A stretch of 63,880 bases of DNA from Ginglymostoma cirratum (lineage: Eukaryota), in NCBI GenBank assembly GCA_024137785.1, contig JAHRHZ010000024.1:10938846-11002725 (forward strand). The letters run 5' to 3'. The position numbers were made by a program, and so were the translations under genes. Under the pieces are notes generated by a model, which was not told where the DNA came from, did no database searches, and saw nothing but the letters and a program-made list of their open reading frames with translations. Every line of letters begins with the position of its first letter. The first letter of the stretch is position 1. This document shows, piece by piece, positions 7,163-63,880 of the stretch.

Positions 7163-7295
7163 CAGAAAATGCTGGAGGAACTCAGCAGGTCTGACAGCAT
7201 CTGTGGAGACCGAAACTGAAACTTCCCCCCTCATGCTATCTTCAGGTTCTCTTTTATTTCAGATGTCCAGCTTCTGCAATATTTTTCTTTTACTT
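7163..7295. mobile_element. Degraded Penelope-derived fold-back remnant (older subfamily)
   Basis: CAGAAAATGCTGGAGGAACTCAGCAGGTCTGACAGCATCTGTGGAGA arm and TTTCAGATGTCCAGCTTCTGCAATATTT tail; homologous to 23418-23654 and 53757-53902. Confidence 0.6.
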
Positions 7296-15965: not shown

Positions 15966-17639
15966 TAGGTTCTGGGTGCCTCTTCAACTCACAATCATGA
16001 TTTAATTAATTCTAGGTAACCACGATACATAGTGATACATCCATCTGCACGGTTTCTAAATATACATATGCTTACCATTCTCAGGAACTCAATCAAACAT
16101 CTTGAGAATGCTTGAGTGAATCTTCACTCACTGTCCACGACTACAACACATTTCAGATGCTGACAATTCTATGTGAAAATAAACATTTCCTAGAATGAAA
16201 CCAATTTCTGCGTGTAAGTAACATATTCTTCGGCCTACCTGTCCTTTTTAATCCATCTTGATCAACTAGGTTGTTTGAAAGAGCTGGGTTTGATCGATTC
16301 ATGCTTTAAAGCCTTCACTAACGTATCTAAATTAAAAGTGCAGCCTTCCATTTTTGAATATATGTGCATTGAACTCATTGTTGGCAATGTGCGGATAATT
16401 CACAATATACTTGTACATAAAAATTATAGATGGGCTTTCCAAGTTAGCACTCTGAGCTCGAAAACTTACATGATGCAATAAAATATTGGGATCTGTGTGT
16501 AGAGGTCATTGACCAATCACATGATTTTCTGCCCTTTATAATTAATAGATGTAAAATTGCCTTAACATGCTGTTTTCCAAATCCAAATTGCTGATAGTGC
16601 TTTCCCTACTGCAGACCATCAGAATTAGGAATGTTAATTCATCAAATCTATTGAAATGTAAAATTATAGCTTGTTAAAAAAACTGATTTCCTTCACTAAT
16701 CTGAATTTTCAGGGCCAAGTTTTAAATTAAGTTTGGAATTTATACGATGCACCATTCAAGATGACATGATGGCACTAAACCTGCCTATGTGTTCAATGAA
16801 AATAAAGACATTTTTTCACAGAAATGCTCATGAAATGAATATAAGAACATTTTCAGCAGGTTATTCTTAGCTTCAATTATATAAATATGTTGCATTTACT
16901 TCACAATTAGTTTTGAATTTTTTTTTAATAGTTTGATTTCAAGTACCAATTTTAATTTTGGAAATATAGTCACAAATGTCATATGAAGAGCTGTATACTC
17001 TTTATCTATCGAGCTTGTAACTTGGGATCAAGTTTTCTTTTCAACATGTCCTAGATCCTAGTACAAACAATTAAGAACTATTTATTATCGTGGCCACCCG
17101 ACTGTAGTATTCAGAAAAGAGGCAAATTATTGAAATTTCAGACTATGGGCTCTAAATCACCAGAAGATATCCTGAAAAGTTCCAGAATCACTAATAATAA
17201 AAACAGTATTTAATTTTCCTTCAGTTACCACAGACTTTGGTGGAGTTATAGGTCCTCATCCAGCAGGGTTATATTACTGGGTGTGCGCAAACCTCCAAAC
17301 CTTCCTCAGATTAATGAATGGAAAATCATACACAATCCACATTTAAACTTGTGATGTGTAATTCTTCTGATTAAGGCTCATAATTGGATGTGTGAAGTTA
17401 GAAAATTAACCCTTGCTGTCATATATGCAGCAGAGCAAATAATCAGTGTAGATCACAAATAAACTCTCCATAATGAATCTCCCGCTGGAATGAACAAGCG
17501 ATTTAAATCTCTATTGTGAAGACCAGATATCACTGCAAACCTTTTTGAGGATAGATTGAAGCTTGACATTTCACCTGTTAACTGTTTATTCATAATACTA
17601 TACTCAATATATAATATTCAGAAACAAAATCAAAATTTT

Positions 17640-17828
17640 AAAAAGACAGAAGTTGCTGGAAAAACTCAACAGGCAAACACAGACAAGTTTGGATAAAAAG
17701 GTCACAATTTAACATTTTAATTCTGTTTTTCTCTCTCTACCTCTCTCTCAGCCTAATCTGCTGAGTATTTCCAGAATCTTCTGTTTTTAGTTCAGATTTC
17801 CAGTATCTTCATTATTTTGTTTTTGGTT
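17640..17828. mobile_element. Penelope-derived fold-back mini-element, degraded
   Basis: Arms ACAGAAGTTGCTGGAAAAACTCAACAG and CTGCTGAGTATTTCCAGAATCTTCTGT are inverted; one-sided tail TTCAGATTTCCAGTATC. Confidence 0.6.
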
Positions 17829-21747: not shown

Positions 21748-22088
21748 GATAACAAGGTGTGGAGCTGGATGAACACAGCAGGCCAAGCAGCATCATAGGA
21801 GCAGGAAAGCTTGACGTTTCGGGCCTAGACCCTTCATCAGAAATGGGGGAGGGGAAGAGGGTTCTGAAATAAACAGGGAGAGAGGGGGAGGCGGATAGAA
21901 GATGGATAGAGGAGAGGATAGGTGGAGAGGAGGCAGACAAGTCGAAGCTGGTTCCGTAGGCAGGGACTAAGAAAGGTGATGTGGCTGTAGTACCTGGTTT
22001 GCTTCAGGACATGGTCGAGCAGTTTCAAGGCCGAAGAGATTATGAGAAAGTTGCAGTCGGAGAGAGATCCCCTGAGGAACCTTGTTAT
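21748..22088 (-). mobile_element. Internally deleted Penelope-like element
   Basis: 21748-21945 is the PLE terminal-repeat sequence also at 63429-63660. 21946-22078 reads LKLLDHVLKQTRYYSHITFLSPCLRNQL on the minus strand, resembling a PLE ORF N-terminus. Confidence 0.75.
21813..21840 (-). ncRNA. Minimal type I hammerhead ribozyme core
   Basis: Reverse complement CTGATGA-A-GGGT(CTAG)GCCC-GAAAC-GTC: intact CUGAUGA and GAAA boxes, stem II and GUC triplet. Confidence 0.7.
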
Positions 22089-22740: not shown

Positions 22741-23417
22741 GCATTTCCTGAAGATGGCTGACTAATTGGAAGTTGCAAAAATTGAAAGATATAATATCTG
22801 TAGAAAGAAAATCTGTTGTTTCTGCTTGAGACTTTATATATGTTTATCCAACCATGACACTTATGTGCATACATTACATGCTTAAATTTGTTCAAAATAC
22901 ACTGAGACTTCGGGATCAGGGTTGATGGGGAAAAATAGCACTTTTTTTTTCTCAAAACTGAACTCTAAGAGGCTACTTTGATGTGCTATTATCATAAAAA
23001 TGTTAGTTGGACTAATTGAGAAAAACACAAAGAAGACTGTTCAAAATTTGTGTCAAAACAAACCTTGAGAATCTTGACAAACAAATATCTGTCAGTCTGT
23101 GACTTGAGAATTGATAAGCAGAATTAACGACCAAAGTACTCAGGCTTCATATGAGGAATATTACGTGTGAAGTGGGCCTGAACAAAATTCTGTCAAAGAA
23201 CATCAAAAAGTTCTGACCCTAAAGTAGCACGTGGTGAAAAACTGTAACTGTATAGAAAATGATAGTAATTGTTAAATTTTGATATTTCAGTCAACAAGTA
23301 TAGATGTGAACTGGTCAATCACTGAAGCCTGCAATCAATAAAAATCTAATCACTTGCAGAGGATTTAAAGGCAGAAAACTCATGCAACCTTCACATGACT
23401 AACAGTATATTCAATAT

Positions 23418-23654
23418 CAAAAGCAAAAACAGAAGTTGCTGGAGAAGCTTAGCAGATCTGGCAGCATCACAGAAGAGAAATCAGAATCAATGTTTCGGGT
23501 CTGGTGACCCTTCCAGTTCTGAGGAACGGTCACCAGACCCGAAACATTAACTCTGATTTCCCTTCACAAATGCTGCCAGATCTGCTGAGCTTTTCCAGAA
23601 ACTTCTGTTTTTATTTCTGATTTACAGCATCCACAGTTCTTTCAGATTTTATTT
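23418..23654. mobile_element. Penelope-derived fold-back mini-element (older subfamily) with hammerhead motif
   Basis: About 90-bp inverted arms meet at CCCTTCC-AGTTCTGA-GGAACGG; hammerhead-like CTGAGGAACGGTCACCAGACCCGAAACATT at 23519-23548; ~37-nt one-sided tail; imperfect 14-bp flanking repeat (23404-23417 / 23655-23668). Confidence 0.8.
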
Positions 23655-25495: not shown

Positions 25496-25639
25496 TCGAC
25501 TTCCTCTTTGGCAGGAGTTGTTAGGAACCTCACAGAGAGATACCTCTGGCTTAGATAACAAGTTGTGGGGCTGGATGAACACAGCAGGCCAAGCAGCATC
25601 ATAGGAGCAGGAAAGCTTGACGTTTCGGGCCTAGACCCT

Positions 25640-26039
25640 NNNNNNNNNNNNNNNNNNNNNNNNNNNNNNNNNNNNNNNNNNNNNNNNNNNNNNNNNNNNN
25701 NNNNNNNNNNNNNNNNNNNNNNNNNNNNNNNNNNNNNNNNNNNNNNNNNNNNNNNNNNNNNNNNNNNNNNNNNNNNNNNNNNNNNNNNNNNNNNNNNNNN
25801 NNNNNNNNNNNNNNNNNNNNNNNNNNNNNNNNNNNNNNNNNNNNNNNNNNNNNNNNNNNNNNNNNNNNNNNNNNNNNNNNNNNNNNNNNNNNNNNNNNNN
25901 NNNNNNNNNNNNNNNNNNNNNNNNNNNNNNNNNNNNNNNNNNNNNNNNNNNNNNNNNNNNNNNNNNNNNNNNNNNNNNNNNNNNNNNNNNNNNNNNNNNN
26001 NNNNNNNNNNNNNNNNNNNNNNNNNNNNNNNNNNNNNNN
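25640..26039. other. Assembly gap (400 N)
   Basis: Run of N inside the hairpin. Confidence 0.99.
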
Positions 26040-26050
26040 GCCTAGACCCT

Positions 26051-26078
26051 CTGATGAAGGGTCTAGGCCCGAAACGTC
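26051..26078 (+). ncRNA. Minimal type I hammerhead ribozyme core
   Basis: CTGATGA-A-GGGT(CTAG)GCCC-GAAAC-GTC. Confidence 0.7.
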
Positions 26079-27242
26079 AAGCTTTCCTGCTCCTATGATG
26101 CTGCTTGGCCTGCAGTGTTCATCCAGCCCCACAACTTGTTATCTTGGATTCTCCAGCATCTGCAGTACCTTTTATATCCAAGATACCTCTGGCTTTCTGT
26201 TACTCTGATATTTCACATTCCCCTCTCCTGCAAAGGAGAAATGTAGCATCACAGATGGATTGACAACATTTTTTCCACTATGATGGAAAGGTGCAAAATG
26301 ATAACTCTGATGACAGTGTTGGCTGCTTGGATGCAGATGTGAGGAGGTGCCTTGAAAAACACAGAATTACAAGAGGTATTGATCTAGGGATTACTGTGCA
26401 GGGCATTGCTGGAGTAGTCGATGTGTAGGACTGACACCTGAAATTGCAGTGTCAATCGCTTTGCCTGTACCCATGTGCTGATTGATTCATTTGGGTTATT
26501 GTGTCCAGGTTCAGAGAACCACACTGTTCCTCACTTCATCGGTCACTTGGCTTGGGTTAAAACAATGGTAATTTCCTCCCACTTGTGAGAAAACATGTTT
26601 CTCTGCAAACTTTTGCTTCCTACACAATGACCACCACTGAAATAGCAGAGAACTAGAGTGGGTGGGAAGGGTTTCAGGGTAGGGGCATCCATTCCCTGGT
26701 TGTTGTAACCTTGCAAACCCATCAACAAATGAATCATTGTAACCCTATCTAGGGATCATTTAAATGACAATTCTTCCATCATTTGACTGATACAAATTGT
26801 CATCATAGCTGCAGCTTTTGATTGATCAGAAAAACTGGAAGTAGATACTAATGTGATGTCTGAGTCAAATTGCTACAAATAAAAGTTGGCTTCTCTTGCA
26901 ACTGGGATCCTAACTCGCTGCCAGCTTTTACAATGGGAGCTGATAAGCTCCATTACAATCCCATCCAACTACACGCGGACACATAAACTAGTGGGTAGGA
27001 AAAAGCTAGCAACTAAAAATGCAATGATTATTTTCACACAAAAAGATCAACCCTGCAGAATGTTCAGTTGCCTACATTTAAAGTGTACCATTCACATGTC
27101 GGGGTTAGGAATTCTACATAACAGATTTGGGTTATTACATATCAGATCTGAACAAAAAAAATTACTAGATTAGACAAATGTTACTTGGTGTGAAATATCA
27201 ACACCTTCCCCACCTTGGTTCACTAAAGTCCTTTTGGGGCAT

Positions 27243-27385
27243 GTTCTGAAGAAGGGTCACTGGACCTGAAACATTAACTCTGATGTCTCTCCACAGATGC
27301 TACCACACCAGCTGAATTTTTCCAGCAATTTCTGTTTTTGTTTTAGTTTTTGACATCCAATACCTGCAGTTCTTTTGGATTTTTG
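27243..27385 (+). mobile_element. Penelope terminal fragment (hammerhead motif, arm, tail), older subfamily
   Basis: CTGAAGAAGGGTCACTGGACCTGAAACATTAACTCTG from 27246, then arm and tail sequence as in 23519-23654. Confidence 0.7.
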
Positions 27386-28095: not shown

Positions 28096-29538
28096 CTAGT
28101 GATCGACTCAAATGACTAATTGGTCGAAAATGTAATAGAATCATTTCTAAACTGCATTTTGCTATCATCTCAAATCATATCTCTGTAACTGTCGAAATCC
28201 CAATGAAAGAACAATTTTCTTGGCAGTCACGCATGTGGTGAGTTTGTTACCTGTTAAAGTAGCTCTTGATGCTTAAATCTCTTCAGTGTTAAGTTGACAA
28301 CACTGGCTGGGAGTCTAGTCACTTTTGTAGCAAGCTGGTAGTGCCTTGGCAGGAAGCTGCGAGAATCATCAGCAGAGAGCTCGTCAAAACTTCAAGCATG
28401 AGAGGGTTGCTGCAGCAGTTCCCACATGCAGAATAATTTAAAAGCATAAATGTGGCATTATAGGTTTTACAGCTGTAGAGAATCCAATTATGCCCTGGTT
28501 TGGAAATTGTTGATTGATAGTTCTATTTGATGTTTAATAATGATTGCAGTTTCCCTGATTTAAAACAGAAATGCAGATTTTTGTGTCATTACAATGAGTC
28601 AAATAGGAAAAAAAAATTGTTTGCTTTATTTTTCTCCAAAAAAAGTTAGAAATTGACATTTAGTTTGGTTTTGATCCTGTTTATGCTTAATATTTTGCAA
28701 CATGGCATGATGTCTCATGCCCATCTGTTCATGGTACAAAGCACAAATCAGATTCAAGTGACACCAACTGGTTGACCAGTAACTTCCACATCTACAAAAT
28801 CCTCCCAGGGATGTTCATCCACAAACACTTATGGAGATTGGAACTCATTTAGTTTAAATAAATAAGAGGTCTGGCAGAACAGTACAAAAGAGGACATCAG
28901 TTTAAAGGTTAATTCCATGCAGTACGACTTTGAATGATAATGCTTCACAGCGCATAGCATGTGTAATTTGCAGGCAAGGAGCTCTGGCAGGAATGTTGCC
29001 AGATGAAGACTGACATGAAAGAATCAGGTGGGAACATGTGGAAGGTCAGTACTGGTGGGATTGTAAGGAAGAAATGAACATGAAGGTCTGGGTGTTAACT
29101 GGATTACTAGACTGAGCCTACTACTTACTCTATGAAGCATGGCCTGTGTTGCTTTCCATCCTTGCCTGAATTGCAAATGTACAATGGAAATGAAAATTGG
29201 CTGTGAACTCACACAAACTTGGTGAAGTGAGTGTTGTTTTTTATCTGTCTGAGCATACATGTGAGCAAGACAATTAAGGGGTAATTACATTAATCAGGCA
29301 CTTTCACAATAGAAGTTTAATACAACTGTAATCGAGGTACCCTGCATGTGAAATGAGTGTAGTGTTCAACAATGAATGTTACAAATCCTGGTTGAAAGCA
29401 ATCTTCACCTTGTAACTGGTCATTATCATTGAGCACAGTGATCTCTGTGAAGCAGAAGCCATCACCGGTGACTTTAAAACTGACATCTAGAAGCCACAAT
29501 TCACAAAATCAAGTCAATCCAAGATATAAGTATGTTGA

Positions 29539-31092
29539 GATAACAAGATGCAGAGCTGGATGAGCACAGCAGGCCAAGCAGCATCAGAGGAGCAGGAAAG
29601 CTGATGTTTCGGGTCTAGACCATTCCTCAGAAATGGGGGAGTGGAAGGGGATTCTGAAATAAATAGGGAGGGGGGGAGGCAGATAGAAGATGGATAGAGG
29701 AGAAGATAGGTGGAGAGGAGACAGACAGATCAAAGAGGCGGAGATGGAGCCAGTAAAGGTGAGTGTAGGTGGGGAGTTAGGGATGGGATAGGTCAGTCCA
29801 GGGAGGACAGACAGGTCAAGGAGGTGGGATGAGGCTGGTAAGTAGGAGATGGAGGTGGGGCATGAGGTGGGAGGAGTGGATAGGTGGGAGGAAAGACAGG
29901 TTAGGGAGGTGGGGAACGAGGTGGGCTGGTTTTGGGTTGTCCTCGTTTTTCAAGGACCGCAACTTCCCCTCCACAAGGGTTGAAAATGCCCTCGACCGTG
30001 TCTCTCACATTTCCCGCAACTCATCCCCCACACCCCATCCCCGCAATAACAACCAAAACAGAATGCCCCTATTCCTCACATCCCACCCCACCAACCTCCG
30101 GATCCAACGCATCATCCTCCGACACTTCCACCATCTGCTACCTGACCCCACTACCAAAGTCATTTTTCCTTCCCCACCGTTATCTGCTTTCCAGAGGGAC
30201 CACTCTCTCTGTCATTCCCTTGTTCGCTCCACACCCCCCTCCAGTCCCACCACCCCGGCACTTTTCCCTGCAACTGCAGAAAGTGCTACACCTGCCCCTA
30301 CACCTCCCCCCTCACCCCCATTCCAGGCCCTAAGAAGACCTTCCACATCAAACAGATGTTCACCTGCACATCTGCTAATGAGGTAGACTGTATCCGCTGT
30401 TTCCGATGTGGCTTCCTCTTTATCGGGGAAACCAAGCGGAGGCTCGGTCTGCAACAAATAACTGCACCCCCCAGTCGCGAATCGTTTCAACTCCCCTGTC
30501 CACTCCTTGGATGATGTCCATCCTGGGCCTCCTGCAGTGCCACAACGATGCCACCCAAAGGTTGCAGGAACAGCACCTCATATTTTGCATGGGAACCCTG
30601 CAGCCTAATGGTATCAATGTGGACTTCACAAGCTTCAAAATCTCCCCTCCCCAACCACATCCCAAAACCAGCCCAGCTCGTCTCCGCCTCCCTAACCTGT
30701 CCTTTCTCCCACCTATCCACTCCTCCCACCTCAAGCCCCACCCCCATCTCCGACCTACCATCCTCATCCCGCTTCCTTGACCTTTCCATCCTCCCTGGAC
30801 TGATCTATCCCCTCCCTAACTCCCCAACTACACTCACCTTTAGTGTCTCCATCCCCGCCTCATTGATCTGTCTGTCTCCCCTCCACCTATCTTCTCCTTT
30901 ATCCATCTTCTATCCACCTCCCCCTCTCTCCCTATTTATTTCAGAATCCCTTTCCCCTCCCCCATTTCTGAAGAAGGGTCTAGACCCGAAACGTCAGCTT
31001 TCCTGCTCCTCTAATGCTGCTTGGTCTGCTGTGTTCATCCAGCTCTACACCTTGTTATCTCAGAATCTCCAGCTTCAGCAGTTCCCACTTTC
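29539..31092 (+). mobile_element. 5'-truncated Penelope-like retroelement with inverted ~400-bp terminal repeats and GIY-YIG endonuclease remnant
   Basis: 29539-29936 is the reverse complement of 30661-31060. Internal broken frames read PLFLTSHP (RT thumb), FPCNCRKCYTCP (Cys linker), VDCIRCFRCG..FIGETKRRL (GIY-YIG) and EQHLIFCMGTLQPNGIN. Imperfect 14-bp TSD at 29525-29538 / 31093-31106. Confidence 0.92.
30968..30995 (+). ncRNA. Minimal type I hammerhead ribozyme core in PLE terminal repeat
   Basis: CTGAAGA-A-GGGT(CTAG)ACCC-GAAAC-GTC; a decayed inverted partner lies at 29603-29630(-). Confidence 0.7.
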
Positions 31093-32722
31093 TATAAATA
31101 TGCTGATCTTCTCACAGCTAGCACTGTATTTACTGCAAAGCTTTTGTTTGCAATGCGACGAGCTGGGGATGGATGGGCAAGTCTGCCCTCTTATAACCTC
31201 CTACTGTTGATGTGCAACATGGCTTGTGGTATGTACTTTGAAATAAGGTCTGCTATGTTAATGATCCATTTGCCAAACAATCTTTTCACACACAGCATGA
31301 ACAGTTCTTTCCTTTTACATTGGTACGTTTGTGAATTCAGGCTAGAGAAAGCCACAAAGTTTTAAGAAAATATATGTTTTCTTCAGTAATACTCAAATTC
31401 TGTATCACCATGTGACTAGATGTATTTTTAAAAGAAAATGATGTTAGTTTCTGTTGAAGTTAATTGGGCAAATTAGAAACTGTTGATTACCATCATTGCA
31501 AAAAATCAAATCTACTCCTTGTTAACATCAAAGGCATTGAATATAATGAGAAGTTTGATCACAACGATGGAACTTGTATCAAGTTAAACCAGTCAAGTTC
31601 CATTGACTTAATGGATGTATTCCTTCAATAGCCACTGATAACAGAACCTCACATTTGTTTTGCAGGGGCATAAATCTGTTGAAAATTGCAGTTTATGTGC
31701 AAATACTTACAGGTCATGACTAATACTCTCCATTTGGACAGAAAATATGAGACTAAATTTTCGAAGAATTGGCTTATCGTCAATTTTTGAGAGTCTCATG
31801 GAGGATTTCTGTCTATGAGCCCTAACATGTCTCCTCACATCATGTTACGCTGCTCCACCATTACTACTGGAGTCTTCATCACTGCCAGGAACCTTTAGGA
31901 TCTCTGCTGCAAGTGACATATTTAAAGCCTACTTGTGTGTCAGATGCAAATGCTGTCAGCAGGAGCTGCACCTCAAAGTTGCAGTGGCAGGAGAACTGTC
32001 CTGGAGGTGGCTGGTAGAGACAAGTTGGCGATTTGCATTACCCCATTGAAGCCAACACTGTTAATGAGCCCGCTGCAGCATCCATCGCCCTTCCAAGCTC
32101 CATTGTCCCCAAGCCCTAAATTATGAGTTGCCCCCTTTCGCAGTTATAAGCTGGTCTACATCCCAGCTTGCTGCCTCCAATCCATACAATTAATTTCCCC
32201 AACATTCACAACATTCCACTCACAAAACTGATCCTTGATACCCACCCCTTGACTTTCAATAAACGGAAACCCTGGGCTGAATGAAGCTCATTCTTCAGTT
32301 CAACTTGGAAAGACTGATGAGTGACCAGACCCCTAACAGATCCATGTGAAGCTCCCTGAATGATTTACTGCTAATCCTCGGTCTGCTTGAACTGCACTTC
32401 AGAATCTTTGACTTCCACCTCACTGTAGAGAAAAGGACATCTTGACCATGATGCCCCAAGTGGCCAGATGGCTATGTTTAAGACCCTGGACTGAGATTTG
32501 ATGATTTTCTTAACACACTGTGGCCATTCTGCCTGAATGAAGACAGTCCTCATAGACTTGACTGAGGACTATTCCCATTTGACTTTTACATTTTGGCTTT
32601 TGGTCGAAGCATATGCCACATAAGCTGCTGAAAAATGCTGCGGGTAAGACATTGATGGAGCTCATTGCAGTGCAGCAGCATGTCTACCTCCTTGACTAAA
32701 CACTGCTGACAATCATGACAAG

Positions 32723-32930
32723 AGATAGTAGGAACTGCCGATGCTGGAGTCCGAGATAACAAGGTGTAGAGCTGGATGAACACAGCAGGCCAGGCAGCAT
32801 CAGAGGAGCAGGAAAGCTGATGTTTCGGGTCTGGACCCTTCGCCAGAAATCAGACACAGAAACGTCAGCTTTCCTATTCCTCTGATGCTGCTTGGCCTGC
32901 TGTGTTCATCCAGCTCTACACCTTGTTATC
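32723..32930. mobile_element. Penelope-derived fold-back mini-element with 16-bp TSD
   Basis: Arms 32755-32826 and about 32859-32930 are inverted; 32-nt tail on the left; TGACAATCATGACAAG (32707-32722) vs TGACAATCATAGCAAG (32931-32946). Confidence 0.88.
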
Positions 32931-35091
32931 TGACAATCATAGCAAGTTGCCTGGCTTCGTGTTTGCACTAAAATGCAAGAATGACTGTGAACTTTTAAGG
33001 CAAGGTAAGGTAAAGCATGTCAGAAATGCTGTGAACATTGGAATCTGTGCAAAGTAAGTGAGCGCTTAGAGATCAGGCCAGGAGCCCTGAGCTGAATCGC
33101 TGTCAAATCCACAAGGTGTGTCCCTGCCCCTCAGCCTGACCTGGCAGCAGCATTATATTAAAAGGTGCCAGTGTGTGCCAAAGCCCAGGATAAGTAAGTC
33201 AGAGACGTGCCATTTGGTGAGGCTAGTGCTTGTCTGATGTCAATCTCCATGGATGGGCATGTGCAATTGGTTGCTCCCCACAGAGTAAAAACCTAAGATA
33301 TGGAGGGCTGCTGTCCAACACGGAGGCCAGAGGGGTAAATGGTGAGTTGGGGCCTCCAGGTACATTTATGTTGCAAATTGATGACGTTTTGCTTCTCTCC
33401 AGCCCATGAAAGAACAGGAACCTGCAAACAAAGATTAGGTACTAACAAGCATGAGGCATGATTAGGCACTAATGAGACACAATTTCTTCCAAATAGGTCT
33501 TTCACTTTTCACCAGCAAGATCCTATTCTCTCCATTCAAACTTCGGTTGGAAAATTGCATTTTTGCTTTTCAATGCAAGAATCTAATTTTTCCAAACCAG
33601 CCAAATTTTAAACTGACCCACCATTGACCATGTTGGTCAGGGGCTGGGAAAAATCCTCCCATACATTCTGCAGCGTGCTTTAGAAAATTTAGATTCTTGC
33701 TGATCCTATAACCATTGCAGATATTAGCCCAAAATCTTTCAAAATTGAAACTTAACTTGTGAGAGTACCTGCTGGAAGTCCTGTGGCACACAAATGCACT
33801 GACATTGTCTGCAAAGTTTAAAGTTTCCAATTGGCATTTTCCACTGCGAGGGACCCTGTGTAGAAGTTTCCAATCCAGACCTCTGTGCCTTTGGTCAGAA
33901 ATGTGGGAACTGGCTGTTCATCTAACCAGGAAATAACATACTTGTTAATGATGATCACCCCTATGTTAACCCACAATATTATCTACTCCAACCCAAAAGT
34001 TCAAAAACACACCCCTCTGCCAACCTGACTCAATTCTTTGTCTTACTACTGTCCCTCCACTGACCCGACCATGTCTTTTTATTTTTCTGCACTTTTGAAT
34101 ATGGATTGAAATGAGAAAAAGATTAAAAATTGTCAAAGAATGATTGCAGTTTTTAGAAACAAGTTACCTGACACTCATTGTAAATATTGTTCACACAGTT
34201 CTTGGTTCAAGCAATAGTGCCAGATGAGCTGGTACCAGGGGGATTGGGTACAAATGGGGATTTAGCCAGTAATAAGTAGCTGATCAGTCTGTGAAACGGT
34301 TACTAGTTTTCAATGACAAAGGCTCCAGCTGGCCAACAACAATGTGATTGCCCTCCCCTCCAGGGAGTTTTAACTGCTTTTGGGTGTGAATGTTTGAATC
34401 AGAAGCCATCAGATCTCTGGAAGGGAAGGAGCAGCTTTTGTTCTGTAGTAAAGTAGTATTGCAAAGTGGCCTCAGGATCTGGGAATCTCTCTCCCCTCTG
34501 TTTCACTTCTCCCATGCTTTCCAAGCTCTCCCCCAACCTGGTTCTCTCTCAAGTCCTGACACAATCCCCAAAACCCCAATCCTCCTCCTTCCTTCCAGGT
34601 TCTCCCTATCTTCCCCAACCTCCCCACCCCGTCCATGAATTTCCAGATTTCTCCCACCTCGGTTCCAATCACAATCACCTCCCCATCTTGATTCCTCACT
34701 CCTCTGAGCTACTTCCATTTGAAACCTGCTCACAAACAATTTAAAGCAGGGCACAGGATGCATGCATTGGTGTTAGCAAACACTGCCTTCCCTCCACCCA
34801 TTAGTCCCTTTTTCTGTGTCTGTTGGTATGTGTCTGTAGAGGGGGTGGTGAGGCTGCTTATAAATGGGTTAGAGCTTTAACTCACACTGTTATATGTGGA
34901 CAGTTTATGAGTGTTTATCTCTAGTTAAAATCTGTTCATTTGTAATAAATAGTAATTCATTTTAAGTAGAGAATTATGGTTCATGATTTCTGCAAACATA
35001 ATTCTAAAAGACTGGCAAATTGAGGAATTCTGAGTACTATTTAAAATCTTCAACTTTTGTGATGGCCCTGGGAATAGTGAGGTTTTTTTTT

Positions 35092-45914: not shown

Positions 45915-47345
45915 AAAGAACAAAGAACAACACAACACAGGAACAGACCTTTCAGCCCTCTAAGCCTGCGCTGACACATTTTGCCCTTCCATCTTAAAAA
46001 TGTCTTCACGTACAGGATCTGTATCCCTCTATTCCCTTCCTATTCATGTATTCGTCTAGGTGTTTCTTGAATGCTGCTATTATGTCTGCTTCCACCACCT
46101 CCTCTGGTTGTGTGTTCCAGGCACCCACCACCCATTGTGTGAAAAACGTGCCTTGCAAATCTCTTTTAAACTTATCCCCCCCTCCCCCGACCCCCCATTC
46201 CATATCTTGGATCTGCGTCCCTAGTAATTGACAAACCCCCAAACCTGGGAAAAAGCCTTACACTTTCTACTCTATCCATGCCATTCGCAAACTTATAACT
46301 TCTATTAAGTCACCTCTCAACTTCTTATGTTCCACTGAAAACAAACCCAGTCTATCCACCTTTCTTCATAGCTAAAATCCTCCAGGAAACTTCCTGATAA
46401 ACCTTTCCTGTACCGCCTCACAAGATTCCACGTCCTTCTGGTAGTGTGGTGTCAAGAACTGCACACTATATTCTAAGAGTGGCCTAACCAAAGTTCTATA
46501 AAGCTGCAGCATAACTTATTTATCCTTATACTCAATGCCTCTTCCAATGATGGCAAGCATTCCATGGGCCTTTTTTACTACCTTATCTACCTGTATTGCC
46601 ACCTTCAGTGAGCTGTGGACCTGTATTCATACAGATCCCTCTCCATATCAATACTCCCAAGGGTTCTACCATTCACTGTATAATTTCCACTTGTACATGA
46701 CCTCCCAAAATGCATCACCTCACATTTGTCCAGATTAAACACCATTTGCTATTTTTTTCTGCCCATGCCTCCAACTGATCTGTATCCTGCTCAATCCTCT
46801 GACAATCCTCTTCACTATCTGCAACTCCACCTTATCTGTGTATCGTCAGCAAACTTACTAATCGACCAGCTACATTTTCCTCCAAATCATGCGCGTAGAC
46901 AGCAGGGGTCCCAGCATTGATCCCAATGGAACAGCACTAATCACAACCTTCCATTCCAAAAAGCATCTTTCACTGTTACCCTGTCTCCTATGACTAAGTC
47001 AGTTCTGTATCCATCTTGCCAACTCACCCCTGACATCATATGACTGCACCTTTTGTACCAGTCTGCCATGAGGGACCTTGTCAAAGGCTTTACTGAAGCC
47101 TATGCAAATAACATCAACTGCTTTTCCCTCATCAATCATCTTCGTCACTTCCTCAAAAAACTCGGTCAAGTTAGTGAGGCATGACCTCCCCCGCACAAAA
47201 CCATGTTGTCCATCACTATTAAGTCCATTTGCTTCTAAATATGTATAGATCTTGTCCGTGAGAATATTTTTGAATAATCTCCCTACCACCCACGTGAGGC
47301 TCACAGGCCTGTAAATTCCTGGATTATCCCTGTTACCCTTAAACA
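45915..47345 (-). mobile_element. CR1 LINE RT through 3' tail
   Basis: ORF 46999..47346(-) YRPVSLT...QHGFVRGRSCLTNL...FSKAFDKVPHGRL; ORF 46006..46242(-) FFTQWVVGAWN; AAAGAACAAAGAAC tail. Confidence 0.92.
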
Positions 47346-49283
47346 ATGAGCTGCTGAATATTTAAAGATTTTCTGACTTTTTTTATTCTCCGTGGATGAT
47401 AGTGCAAAACTAGAGACTTTTTTAGATGCTCGCCACTACTAGCATATTATATGCAGCAGAGGTGCCCACCACTATGCCATTGGGTGTCAGCAATGCTAAA
47501 TGATGTGGCTGAGAAGCATGGAGTAGATTCACTGCGACTAGATCTTTTACATTAGTATTAGTTTAAGTTACTAATACCATGTAGGAAAGGATACCCACTA
47601 AAAACTTCAGAAGATAGGTTTAATCTTGATAATCAGTTAAGGTTTATCACATAGCACTTAATGGCTAGTTACATTATATTTCGGAAACAATTGTTTCTTC
47701 TGAGACAAGATACTCAACTTAGGAGCAAGCACACATCGCTGTTAGCCACATTGACTTAACGCTAGAATAATTGGTACTGTATCACTTGTCTTAGAACAAA
47801 TACATTGGTAAGCTTGTCCCAGGAACAGTCCCTTAAATCCTGATAGGTGAGGATCATCTTATGATGTTAGTGAGCCTTTACAAATACTAACAACATGAAC
47901 TGCCTGGAAAAGGCAGAAAAATGGCTGGATCTAAATTAACATAAACTTGGTTTGTAAATTGGTTGCCTTTTTAAAGCAAAGATTCTATCTTTAGCTGTAT
48001 ATTGTGGTGTAGTTGATGAACTATCAATCTTTTTCACTGTTTTGGAGACATTTTTGATTGGGTTCATGCAAATTATTTTCAATAGCAGCTATGTGATATG
48101 ATTGGTGGATTTAGAAGCAGAAGCAAATCAAAAGATAACAAAGTTAAAAAGCAAAACCAATATAATGGAACAATCATGAGTAAGGGAAATATTGCCAATT
48201 GGGTTGATTGTGATTTCATCACAAACTCAGCATTCACTGCTGATGCAGAAATATTGTTAAGGCACTAAACGTTTATTTATTATTAAAATCCTCCATTAAA
48301 CTCCAGAACAATTCCTTCTTAGACTGGACATTGCAATAAAATGATGGTTCTTAGAGTTGTTTAATCTCTTGTGATAGTGCCTTTGAGAAATCCACTCATG
48401 CTTTAAAATTAGACTTCAGCTGAATAGTTTTCATTTCCAGGGAACAAACGGGAACAAACACAGACTCTCAAAGTAGAGTTAGGTACTTCAACATGCCATT
48501 TTTTGTTTGTAAAGCCAGCCAGTGAAATTAATATAGATACTCCATGACAACACAGTTAAACGCATATGTTGCAGGCACCTCTTTGCTTAGTAAGAGTGCC
48601 TTCTGAGACCAGAAATAACATTCCTGATTGGTCACAAGTATAATAATGATTTATCATTTCAGTCACAGTGGAATGTTATTTTCGGAATCCTAGATCTAAC
48701 TGCGCACTTAGGGCACTAGCTTTGCTTCAATCATAGTTTATAGGGCAGTAAGGTCATTGCAACAACAGATTCAGAGTCTCCATGTAATCTCAGTGCTATT
48801 TCTAACCATCATTACATAGTTCCACTTTATGGGAACGATAGTGTTTTGTGATTTATGTCAGTGTCTGAACAGAAGTTACAGCTCATCATTTTTTCGCCAG
48901 ACGTGATATTTTTTAACTCTTCAGAACCTGCAGTTTTATGAATTATAGAGTTATAACATCATAACTGCTTCATGTGATGTGTTTAACGGCTGCCACAAAC
49001 TAAACTGAAAGCAAATTCAGAGGTGGAGGTTACATAACTACAGCAAGCCAACTGGTGCATGGTGTACAAATGTATTTCTCAAAGCATTCTTTTTTCACAG
49101 AAAACAACAAAAAGATGCACACATTAACATTACCAGTTGCAGGTTACTCAAGTTATTCAATATCTATGTTTCAAGAAGAAAATTATAATGTATAACAAAA
49201 CACCATATTAATTCTATTTCATCTCAATTTCATCCATCTCCACACATATATTTCACCCATTATCTCTGAAGCATTCAGGTCTT

Positions 49284-49357
49284 TCTATTATGTTATATAT
49301 AATTATATTATTATAATATATTATTATATTATATATATTATATATCAGTCTATTATG
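49284..49357. repeat. AT-only low-complexity filler bounded by duplicated TCTATTATG
   Basis: TCTATTATG at 49284-49292 and 49349-49357, with about 53 nt of A/T-only sequence between. Confidence 0.8.
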
Positions 49358-50222
49358 GATAGACTGGAGAGTTGGGCGGAGAAGTGGCAGATGGAGTTCA
49401 ATCCGGGCAAGTGTGAGGTGATGCATTTTGGGAGGTCTAATTCTAGAGCAAACTATACTGTAAACGGAAGAGCCTTGGGAAAAGTTGATGAGCAGAGAGA
49501 TCTGGGAGTTCAGGTCCATTGTACCCTGAAGGTGGCTGCACAGGTGGATAGAGTGGTCAAGAAGGCATATGGTATGCTTGCCTTCATCGGACAGGGTATT
49601 GAGTATAAGAGCTGGCAGGTCATGTTAAAATTGTACAAGACTTTGGTTCGGCCGCATTTAGAATACTGTGTACAGTTCTGGTCGCCACATTACCAAAAGG
49701 ATGTGGAAGCTTTGGAGAGGGTACAGAGAAGGTTTACGAGGATGTTGCCTGGTATGGAAGGTGCTAGCTATGAAGAGAGGTTGAGTAGGTTAGGATTGTT
49801 TTCATTAGAAAAAAGGAGATTGAGGGGGGACCTGATTGAGGTCTTCAAAATCATGAAGGGTATAGACAGGGATGATAGAGATAAGCTTTTTCCCAGGGTG
49901 AGGGATTCAATAACGAGGGGTCACGCATTCAAGGTGAGAGGAGAAAAGTTTAAGGGGGATACACGCGGAAAGTACTTTACACAGAGGGTGGTAGGTGCCT
50001 GGAACGCGTTGCCAGCAGAGGTAGTAGAGGCAGGCACGGTAGATTCATTTAAGGTGCGTCTGGACAGATACATGAGTAGGTGGGGAGCAGAGGGATACAG
50101 ATCCTTAGGAATTGGGCGATAGGTTTAGACAGTGGATTTGGATCAGCACAGGCTTGGAGGGCCGAAGGGCCTGTTCCCGGGCTGTAAGTTTTCTTTGTTC
50201 TTTGTTTTTTGTTGTTTTTTTC
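49355..50222 (+). mobile_element. Young 5'-truncated CR1 LINE with open ORF2 C-terminus (255 aa)
   Basis: ORF 49355..50122 WAEKWQMEFNPGKCEVMHFG...RDLGV...YKTLVRPHLEYCVQFWSP...RRLRGDLIEVFKI...FTQRVVGAWN with no stops and CpGs retained; 3' UTR and TTCTTTG-type tail. Confidence 0.95.
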
Positions 50223-53756: not shown

Positions 53757-53902
53757 GAAATAAAAAGAAAATGCTAGAAACACTCGGCAGATCAGACAGC
53801 ATTTACGGAGAGAGAAACAGAGTTAACATTTCTCTCAGACTGACCTGCTGAGCATTTCCAGCATTTTCTGATTCTGTTTCAGATTTCTAGTATTCTGTTT
53901 TT
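53757..53902. mobile_element. Penelope-derived fold-back mini-element, degraded
   Basis: AGAAAATGCTAGAAACACTCGGCAGATC and GACCTGCTGAGCATTTCCAGCATTTTCT are inverted; tail TTTCAGATTTCTAGTA. Confidence 0.7.
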
Positions 53903-63428: not shown

Positions 63429-63880
63429 AGAGATAAAAGGTACTGCAGATGCTGGAGAATCCAAGATAACAAGCATGGGGCTGGATGAACACAGCAGGTC
63501 AAGCAGCATCATAGGAGCAGGAAAACTCGACGTTTCGGGCCTAAACCCTTCAACAGAAATGGGGGAGGGGAAGGGGGTTCTGAAATAAATAGGGAGAGAG
63601 GGGGAGGCGGATAGAAGATGGATAGAGGAGAGGATAGGTGGAGAGGAGGCAGACAAGTCGAGGAGGCGGGGATGGAGCCAGTAAAGGTGAGTGTAGGTAG
63701 GGGGGTAGGGAGGAGATAGGTCAGTCCCAGTCGCGAACCATTTCAACTCCCCCTCCCATTCCTCAGATGACATGTCCATCCTTGGCCTCCTACAATGCCA
63801 CAGTGATGCCACCCGAAGGCTGCAGGAACAGCAAATCATATTCAGCCTGGGAACCCTGCAGCCCAATGGCATCAATGTGG
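63429..63880. mobile_element. Penelope-like element with inversion, running off the window end
   Basis: 63429-63726 is the minus-strand terminal repeat with tail and hammerhead-like motif (63529-63556). From about 63726 the plus strand reads PVANHFNSPSHSSDDMSILGLLQC...QEQQIIFSLGTLQPNGINV (GIY-YIG C-terminus). Confidence 0.9.

Follow-up and report, generated by a model that had tools for sequence, protein, structure and literature searches.

Endonuclease-bearing (EN+) Penelope-like elements (PLEs) are described as inserting in a characteristic unit that consists of a 5′-truncated copy, an adjoining inverted copy and a one-sided tail of 30–40 bp (PMC8557442, PMC3846280). The Poseidon protein PAc from Anolis carolinensis cuts and extends both target strands and starts reverse transcription at two sites in the RNA. 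The tail of this element corresponds to the stretch between the two RT start sites, and cleavage by the ribozyme is not needed (PMC11167929). Minimal type I hammerhead ribozymes in metazoan PLEs occur as opposite-strand pairs 100–700 bp apart, together with many solo motifs left by truncated PLEs (PMC4209133). Finally, non-LTR retrozymes are short, non-coding, ribozyme-bearing elements derived from PLEs that have been reported in one cartilaginous fish (bioRxiv 10.64898/2026.07.22.740005).

Here we compare these systems with ribozyme-bearing hairpins from the shark Ginglymostoma cirratum, starting from a stretch of 63,880 nucleotides (contig JAHRHZ010000024.1, positions 10,938,846 to 11,002,725; hereafter the window). 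Element positions are numbered from the C of CUGAUGA (+1). The shark copies resemble the described EN+ PLE unit in having a head-to-head inverted copy, a tail at one end, a target duplication and palindromic junctions; assembly gaps at such sites and TATA- and Inr-like motifs in the terminal repeat are further points of likeness. In contrast to that unit, the form found here is shrunk to about 230 bp, occurs in thousands of copies and has its inner ends concentrated in an 8-nt window, which is unreported in the accessible text of PMC8557442 and PMC3846280. As in the anole element, the ribozyme lies about 100–130 nt upstream of what would be two tail-bounding RT start sites, and both strands appear to be extended. 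The PAc ORF starts inside the ribozyme (PMC11167929), whereas the ORF of the shark element begins at about +170, and the question where the cDNAs end is not addressed in the accessible part of that paper. The hammerhead shares its core, the bulged base before stem II and the palindromic helix III with those described in PMC4209133, which in its accessible text includes no shark and gives no account of break points. Non-LTR retrozymes are defined by head-to-tail tandem units; the stubs described here are head-to-head or solo.

The inverted-copy-plus-tail layout, the ribozyme, the tail and the opposite-strand ribozyme pairs are therefore already in print, as these four PMC papers attest, and the hairpin, although an ordinary sequence feature, is useful as a test bed. 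Among the main texts of mostly open-access papers covered by our literature search, we found no account of the stop cluster reported below or of shark stubs.

Results and Discussion

The Focal Hairpin

The original prediction described a fold-back element with two inverted arms of ~87 bp, a 36-nt one-sided tail and a perfect 15-bp flanking duplication. All of these parts are present at 25538–26195:

25538–25552, no strand: left target-site duplication, 15 bp, identical to 26181–26195
25553–25639, minus strand: inverted arm, element positions +94 back to +8, from arm comparison
25640–26039, no strand: 400-N assembly gap with the same 11 nt on both sides
26040–26050, no strand: inverted-arm end repeated across the gap, and fold-back junction; the same junction is ungapped in two other copies (L010 and L027)
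26050–26144, plus strand: forward arm, positions −1 to +94, from arm comparison
26051–26078, plus strand: minimal type I hammerhead core (CUGAUGA, bulged A, stem II, GAAA, palindromic C-GUC), from motif match to PMC4209133
26145–26180, plus strand: one-sided tail, +95 to +128 plus 2 extra bases, between two outer-end clusters
26181–26195, no strand: right target-site duplication, 15 bp, identical to the left copy

The arms (25553–25639 and 26058–26144) measure 87 nt each and are 99% complementary, and 34 of the 36 nt in the tail are templated. The inverted arm is likely a cDNA that was primed at the inner RT start site. The hammerhead core is present once, on the plus strand, with a predicted cut after 26078. 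An Rfam search returned no hammerhead family and only weak, sub-threshold matches to microRNA hairpins; the ribozyme label is therefore taken from the motif and from the description in the accessible text of PMC4209133. In an ungapped copy with the same apex, a long hairpin (about −181 kcal/mol) is predicted to conceal the hammerhead core.

The earlier description had placed the hammerhead at the apex. The core motif does lie at the fold-back, with self-cleavage as a prediction from this motif, but the description omitted the 400 N that interrupt the hairpin. The contig to the right of this gap opens with 10–11 nt from the end of the left arm, and the CUGAUGA box comes next; the fold-back junction itself has therefore been sequenced. 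The genome contains 33 exact copies of this junction. Since both flanks share 11 nt, the gap probably hides no sequence. Gaps recur at such hairpins, with 30 internal 400-N runs in 90 sampled loci, and the real focal element probably measures about 250 bp.

The Source Element and Its Copies in the Window

A 32-nt piece of the tail occurs in 40,261 exact copies in the 4.36-Gb genome. One copy (L083) carries, upstream of the ribozyme and in one frame with a single in-frame stop, a YIDD motif, a thumb, a CxxxxCxxC linker and a GIY-YIG domain. The latter matches Pfam with an E value of 0.0016, which is below the cut-off, and Pfam found no RT match on this partial fragment. The ribozyme segment is found both after the 3′ UTR (L083) and before the start of the ORF, as expected from a pseudo-LTR shared by the 5′ and 3′ ends. 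Copies that run on behind the tail open the ORF behind the ribozyme. The RT and GIY-YIG remains upstream of the ribozyme segment bear out the predicted Penelope origin and the placement of the hammerhead in a terminal repeat. With RT and C-terminal GIY-YIG in one ORF, a pseudo-LTR hammerhead, and an inverted copy with tail and target duplication, the source element is, by its sequence features, an EN+ PLE. The Zn-finger-like CxxxxCxxC between RT and EN is a feature stated for Neptune and Nematis (PMC8557442, in its accessible text) and, by this linker motif alone, points to Neptune (or Nematis), unlike Poseidon PAc.

The family of the focal copy (E1) is accompanied by a second ribozyme-bearing family, E2, which is ~70% alike to E1 and is represented in the window at 23416 and 27243. 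At least 18,567 E2 sites in the genome stop at the same place as E1, as counted with a pattern that left out the template base at −19 and hence read-through copies. The window contains the following copies besides the focal one:

7163–7286, no strand: decayed remnant, one arm and a tail piece, without core (alignment)
17630–17825, plus strand: decayed inverted remnant of E2 type, without ribozyme core (alignment)
21748–21945, minus strand: arm spanning +94 to about −100 that continues into other element sequence
23416–23650, plus strand: hairpin of the related family E2, core at 23519, degenerate flanking repeat (alignment)
27243–27383, plus strand: solo E2 stub that starts 3 nt upstream of the core, with tail
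29536–31093, plus strand: long form with an inverted arm of ~400 nt, a forward copy that retains traces of RT-thumb and GIY-YIG, a ribozyme, a tail and a degenerate 14-bp duplication
32705–32943, minus strand: older-subfamily hairpin with a left-hand tail, a mutated core and a 12-bp duplication (alignment)
53762–53886, no strand: decayed inverted remnant of E2 type, without ribozyme core (alignment)
63430–63880, minus strand: copy that reads through the stop point, with a TATA-like box (63583–63591) and an initiator-like motif (A at 63560)

Six other copies of the hammerhead-centred design had been predicted. The hairpins at 23416 and 32723 indeed turn at or near the ribozyme. The remnants at 17630, 53762 and 7163 are without core and hence not hammerhead-centred, and the copy claimed at about 5690 gave no alignment at E 0.01. 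Four further copies with other break points (21748, 27243, 29536–31093 and 63430) were missing from the earlier list; the one at 29536–31093 has the inverted-copy-plus-tail layout at a length of 1.55 kb, with coding remains. Pfam searches of the window ORFs gave no match for the PLE pieces, and a PDB sequence search gave a single unrelated weak match. As separate observations, the reverse complement of the E1 TATA-like motif at 63583–63591 reads AATAAA, which might act as an antisense polyadenylation signal and is missing from E2, and the window contains two inverted copies of LINE-like reverse transcriptase ORF 3′ ends (49196–50122 and 45915–46749) with a weak RVT_1 match.

Outer Ends and Forms of the Insertions

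We sampled 90 loci (30 + 60) among the tail matches listed. These gave 116 tail-bearing entries, some of which represent the two ends of one insertion. Fifteen entries are hairpins whose two arms end between +10 and −8, and 19 are solo stubs whose start falls in this interval at the ribozyme edge. An inverted arm with a break elsewhere was found in 43 entries and no inverted arm in 22, while 14 run into a gap and 3 were unparsed. None of the copies read is full-length, and many apices are hidden by gaps. In this tail-enriched sample the outer ends are bimodal, with 112 of 277 arms ending at +88 to +97 and 132 at +125 to +137. The outer end of the inverted arm is fixed at +88 to +97, irrespective of the inner end. 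Target duplications measure 13–16 bp in 45 of the 59 that were found. Given these duplications and the one-sided tail, the insertions do not have the full TIRs and the short fixed duplication that mark DNA-transposase products.

Head-to-tail tandems with at least two ribozyme units, the mark of retrozymes, were found neither at the focal locus nor among the sampled copies, which include only a few partial tandems. In six of these (L153, L155, L169, L170, L172 and L174) a copy that starts at the front edge of the ribozyme is preceded by a piece that ends 130–370 nt into the early ORF. In these arrangements the RT appears to have switched template from the 5′ end to a point in the early ORF, which implies that the ORF lay behind that end on the template.

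Three sampled loci have singular structures. On the minus strand of L073 (4800–5150) an E1 insertion lies inside an E2 hairpin, beside a stretch common to both families, and the E2 ribozyme piece between the E1 arms is either a cross-family chimera or a nested insertion. L078 repeats a ribozyme-bearing hairpin junction at 140-bp spacing (minus strand, about 1034–1174), a short tandem that may be retrozyme-like. At L112 (minus strand, 4861) a solo stub follows a run of 21 T, possibly an untemplated tailing of the cDNA end.

Inner Ends Stop at the 5′ Edge of the Ribozyme

The inner ends proved to be sharply clustered. Among the tail-selected copies, 53 of the 113 arms at risk end at −1 to −8, compared to 19 of 135 at +1 to +8 and 1 of 52 at −9 to −30. 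The rate between +9 and +44 predicts about 3 stops at −1 to −8; the observed number is ~17 times this background. This estimate excludes 30 query-biased loci, and rates beyond −100 were left out, as the arm walk ends too early in long arms for which BLAST shows a longer match. Both arm types stop at −1 to −8 (31/73 and 22/40). Genome-wide, 17,680 copies read through the five C's upstream, and 5,253 are without C at −9, although some of these are point mutants. Two apex patterns match 2,318 and 1,818 genome sites, which amounts to at least 4,100 exact-pattern sites, some counted twice across gaps. Common apices in this list are AAATTT, AAAATTTT and AAATGCATTT, all of them palindromic and zero-loop.

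Thus, the fold-back points cluster relative to the CUGANGA box, as the original prediction had anticipated, rather than being spread uniformly. The GUC cut site, the other candidate break point, shows no excess: only 2 of 160 arms stop at +27 to +29, and we rejected it. As the stops concentrate at the 5′ border of the ribozyme and not at GUC, ribozyme activity probably does not set the apex. A 3′ splice site was also dismissed as the stop, given that the nearest AG lies ~24 nt further upstream, where stops are rare.

A Probable Mechanism for Stub Formation

We consider it probable that the stubs are short PLE insertions made anew at each site, with both cut target strands priming reverse transcription close to the start of the RNA and the two cDNAs extending until the template runs out at its 5′ end. 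The endonuclease would cut the target with a stagger of ~14 bp, and the two cut ends would prime cDNA at about +94 and at +128 to +136 in the RNA leader. Each cDNA would then extend as far as the capped 5′ end at −4 to −6, or terminate slightly short of it. Their 3′ ends could anneal through 1–4 self-complementary bases and prime each other's second strand; apices such as AAATTT would arise because the cDNA ends pair through AT or GC and extend each other. A single cDNA alone would leave a solo stub of 130 bp, and longer copies would reflect cDNAs that were initiated elsewhere on the RNA or transferred to another region of it. According to this scheme, the apical position of the ribozyme reflects its place at the extreme 5′ end of the RNA rather than cleavage at that point. 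Having lost both the upstream promoter and the coding region, the stubs are expected to be dead ends. The scheme builds on end positions, duplications, the sharp stop on both arms, arm identity and the lack of a clade; to these we add, by inference, a transcription start, cap copying, RT start sites as in the anole element, twin priming and annealing.

L1 twin priming is similar in that two cDNAs from one RNA are annealed at short complementarity and an extra G is found at full-length 5′ ends, but according to the accessible text of PMC2912911 the second priming site in L1 is variable and the two cDNAs cover different stretches. In the shark element both starts are fixed and both cDNAs would cover the same stretch, so that a palindrome results.

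Two cDNAs or One

Unlike the run-off of two cDNAs, a fold-back would require only one cDNA, which self-primes, possibly on an antisense template, so that the second arm would be copied from the first; even then, the stop may mark the end of the RNA. The agreement between arms is close enough for either process. At subfamily sites the two arms agree in 41/42, 39/41 (position +32), 42/43 and 42/43 hairpins, and the agreement holds in 27 ungapped hairpins, with no change specific to the left or right arm. The arms also share private variants and the length of a T-run. An extra T in the ATTT run occurs in 26 of 127 stopped arms, compared to 2 of 82 read-through arms, and in all 9 scored apices the two arms have T-runs of the same length, although by eye about 2 of ~19 apices in the apex-pattern list have unequal T-runs. 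Equal T-runs are what slippage at the transcription start would leave if a single RNA fed both arms. Matching arms fit the copying of one arm from the other equally well as twin priming, and self-priming has been used to explain palindromic inverted junctions, as proposed for rotifer Penelopes on an antisense template (PMC3846280, in its accessible text). Nevertheless, we judge a single folded cDNA unlikely: the outer end of the inverted arm stays in place whatever the inner end, a strand that folds back cannot form a zero-loop apex, the shorter arm at the apex may be either of the two, and the anole protein is described as extending both target strands from two sites (PMC11167929).

The Stop as a Likely Transcription Start

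The sequence upstream of the stop could be read from copies that run through it. In E1 (87 copies) it contains TATTTAT from −35 and CCATTT with A at −4; in E2 (8 copies) it contains TATAAA from −33 and TCAGTT, again with A at −4. TATA-box and initiator consensus sequences, spaced ~30 nt apart, match the register of the E1 and E2 stops, as far as such short consensus matches go.

The junctions offer a second mark. At 18 of 31 junctions the last untemplated base before the 5′ end is G (expected 28%), compared to 13 of 66 control stops elsewhere, or 13 of 51 without C (p 0.005); the 31 include a few doubtful donor calls and come partly from loci selected for a non-C upstream base. Over all flank junctions the excess is weaker (27/64, p 0.012), many of the junction G's are explicable by micro-homology, and by-eye counts in lists of 100 point in the same direction. 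At E2 junctions, which are confounded by variants, no G excess could be demonstrated. A copied cap G has been reported for full-length L1 and SVA (PMC2912911). RNA reads (4 runs, 2 of them raw) amount to unstranded passive coverage, with equal depth on both strands and no pile-up of molecule starts. The Drosophila Penelope promoter is described as internal and TATA-less, with a start 46 nt before an intron (PMC2377424), and the promoter reading proposed here therefore does not carry over from Drosophila. Taken together, these marks suggest that the stop is likely a capped transcription start with A at −4 and a TATA-like box ~30 nt upstream.

The stop could also be set in another way, by an RNA structure that stalls the RT, by an endonuclease nick at ATT or by ribozyme-linked processing. 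It coincides with the 5′ edge of the predicted helix I, and in E1 a C-rich tract lies just upstream, while ATT at −4 to −2 is the motif preferred by the anole enzyme (PMC11167929). We find this improbable, because the stop comes only after the RT has traversed the entire ribozyme, the GUC site shows no excess, E2 stops at the same place without ATT or a C-run, and the untemplated G and the T-run slips are specific to the stop at the ribozyme edge.

Descent of the Hairpins

The original prediction left two options for these hairpins, products of abortive integration or a non-autonomous, MITE-looking family mobilized by PLE proteins. The first is supported, as the apices cluster at the ribozyme edge and no clade points to a shared master. 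The second, in which whole hairpins would be transcribed and then inserted again by the PLE protein, we regard as very unlikely. Shared descent from a short master should leave one apex, a clade and side-specific changes, and we found none of these, with the exception of one pair. The 36 ungapped hairpins contain 29 distinct apices. Of the 33 copies with the exact focal apex, which are spread over subfamilies and in which either arm may be the shorter at the apex, 30 could be read; 10 carry the tail on the CUGAUGA arm and 15 on the opposite arm, and no tail could be seen in the remaining 5. Nor do copies with the same apex form clades: in a tree of 20 scorable same-apex arms and 21 read-through arms, 14 label changes are needed compared to 13.6 after shuffling, a result that, with 82 columns and no well-supported branch, speaks only for an absence of clustering. 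Moreover, hairpins in which the two arms reach the ribozyme make up 15 of the 116 entries and belong to a continuum of forms. The large number of exact-pattern apex sites, even with some counted twice across gaps, would fit a MITE-like family.

So does the exceptional pair. L244 (G000:C4, ~2.442 Mb) and L250 (~3.819 Mb) lie 1.4 Mb apart and have different flanks and duplications, but they have in common a complex seam that comprises several jumps, and their arms differ in the same way at +32. This seam has exactly 2 copies in the genome. A shared seam and asymmetry in different flanks indicate that copying as a unit happens, although it founded no family here. Hence stubs are not always dead; this single case of unit copying is a rare exception.

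Ordinary random 5′ truncation with inversion, or an artefact of gap assembly, deserves next to no credence: the focal copy does span a gap and 43 of 116 entries have an inverted arm broken elsewhere, but stops at −1 to −8 far exceed background, ungapped hairpins exist, raw reads of one RNA run contain strand-changing joints near the ribozyme edge, and the inner-stop histogram (53/113) refutes random truncation as the whole story.

Implications for PLE Replication

The run-off of two cDNAs lends itself to a more tentative extension, on which we remain somewhat doubtful: PLEs may replicate via a step akin to retroviral strong-stop synthesis, with the hairpins and solo stubs as tens of thousands of failed jumps, and this one mechanism would account for the pseudo-LTR, the inverted copy and the tail. 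A pair of enzymes would use the two target strands as primers, each at a fixed site within the 5′ leader of the capped RNA, and copy up to the cap. An obligatory jump to another part of the RNA would follow, whose destination, for a full copy, would be the repeated ribozyme segment at the 3′ end. Jumps from the 5′ end to the early ORF can be read directly at L153, L155, L169, L170 and L172.

For annotation the stubs call for caution, as they resemble MITEs or microRNA hairpins and break short-read assemblies. The 2024 in vitro study of a PLE leaves the later steps of tandem and inverted insertion unvalidated. A family with more than 40,000 copies, in which cDNA starts and stops are resolved to the base, provides sharp predictions for these steps, namely run-off at the 5′ end, copying of the cap and end-to-end annealing. 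If the run-off reading is true, the stubs are a record of how PLEs copy themselves.
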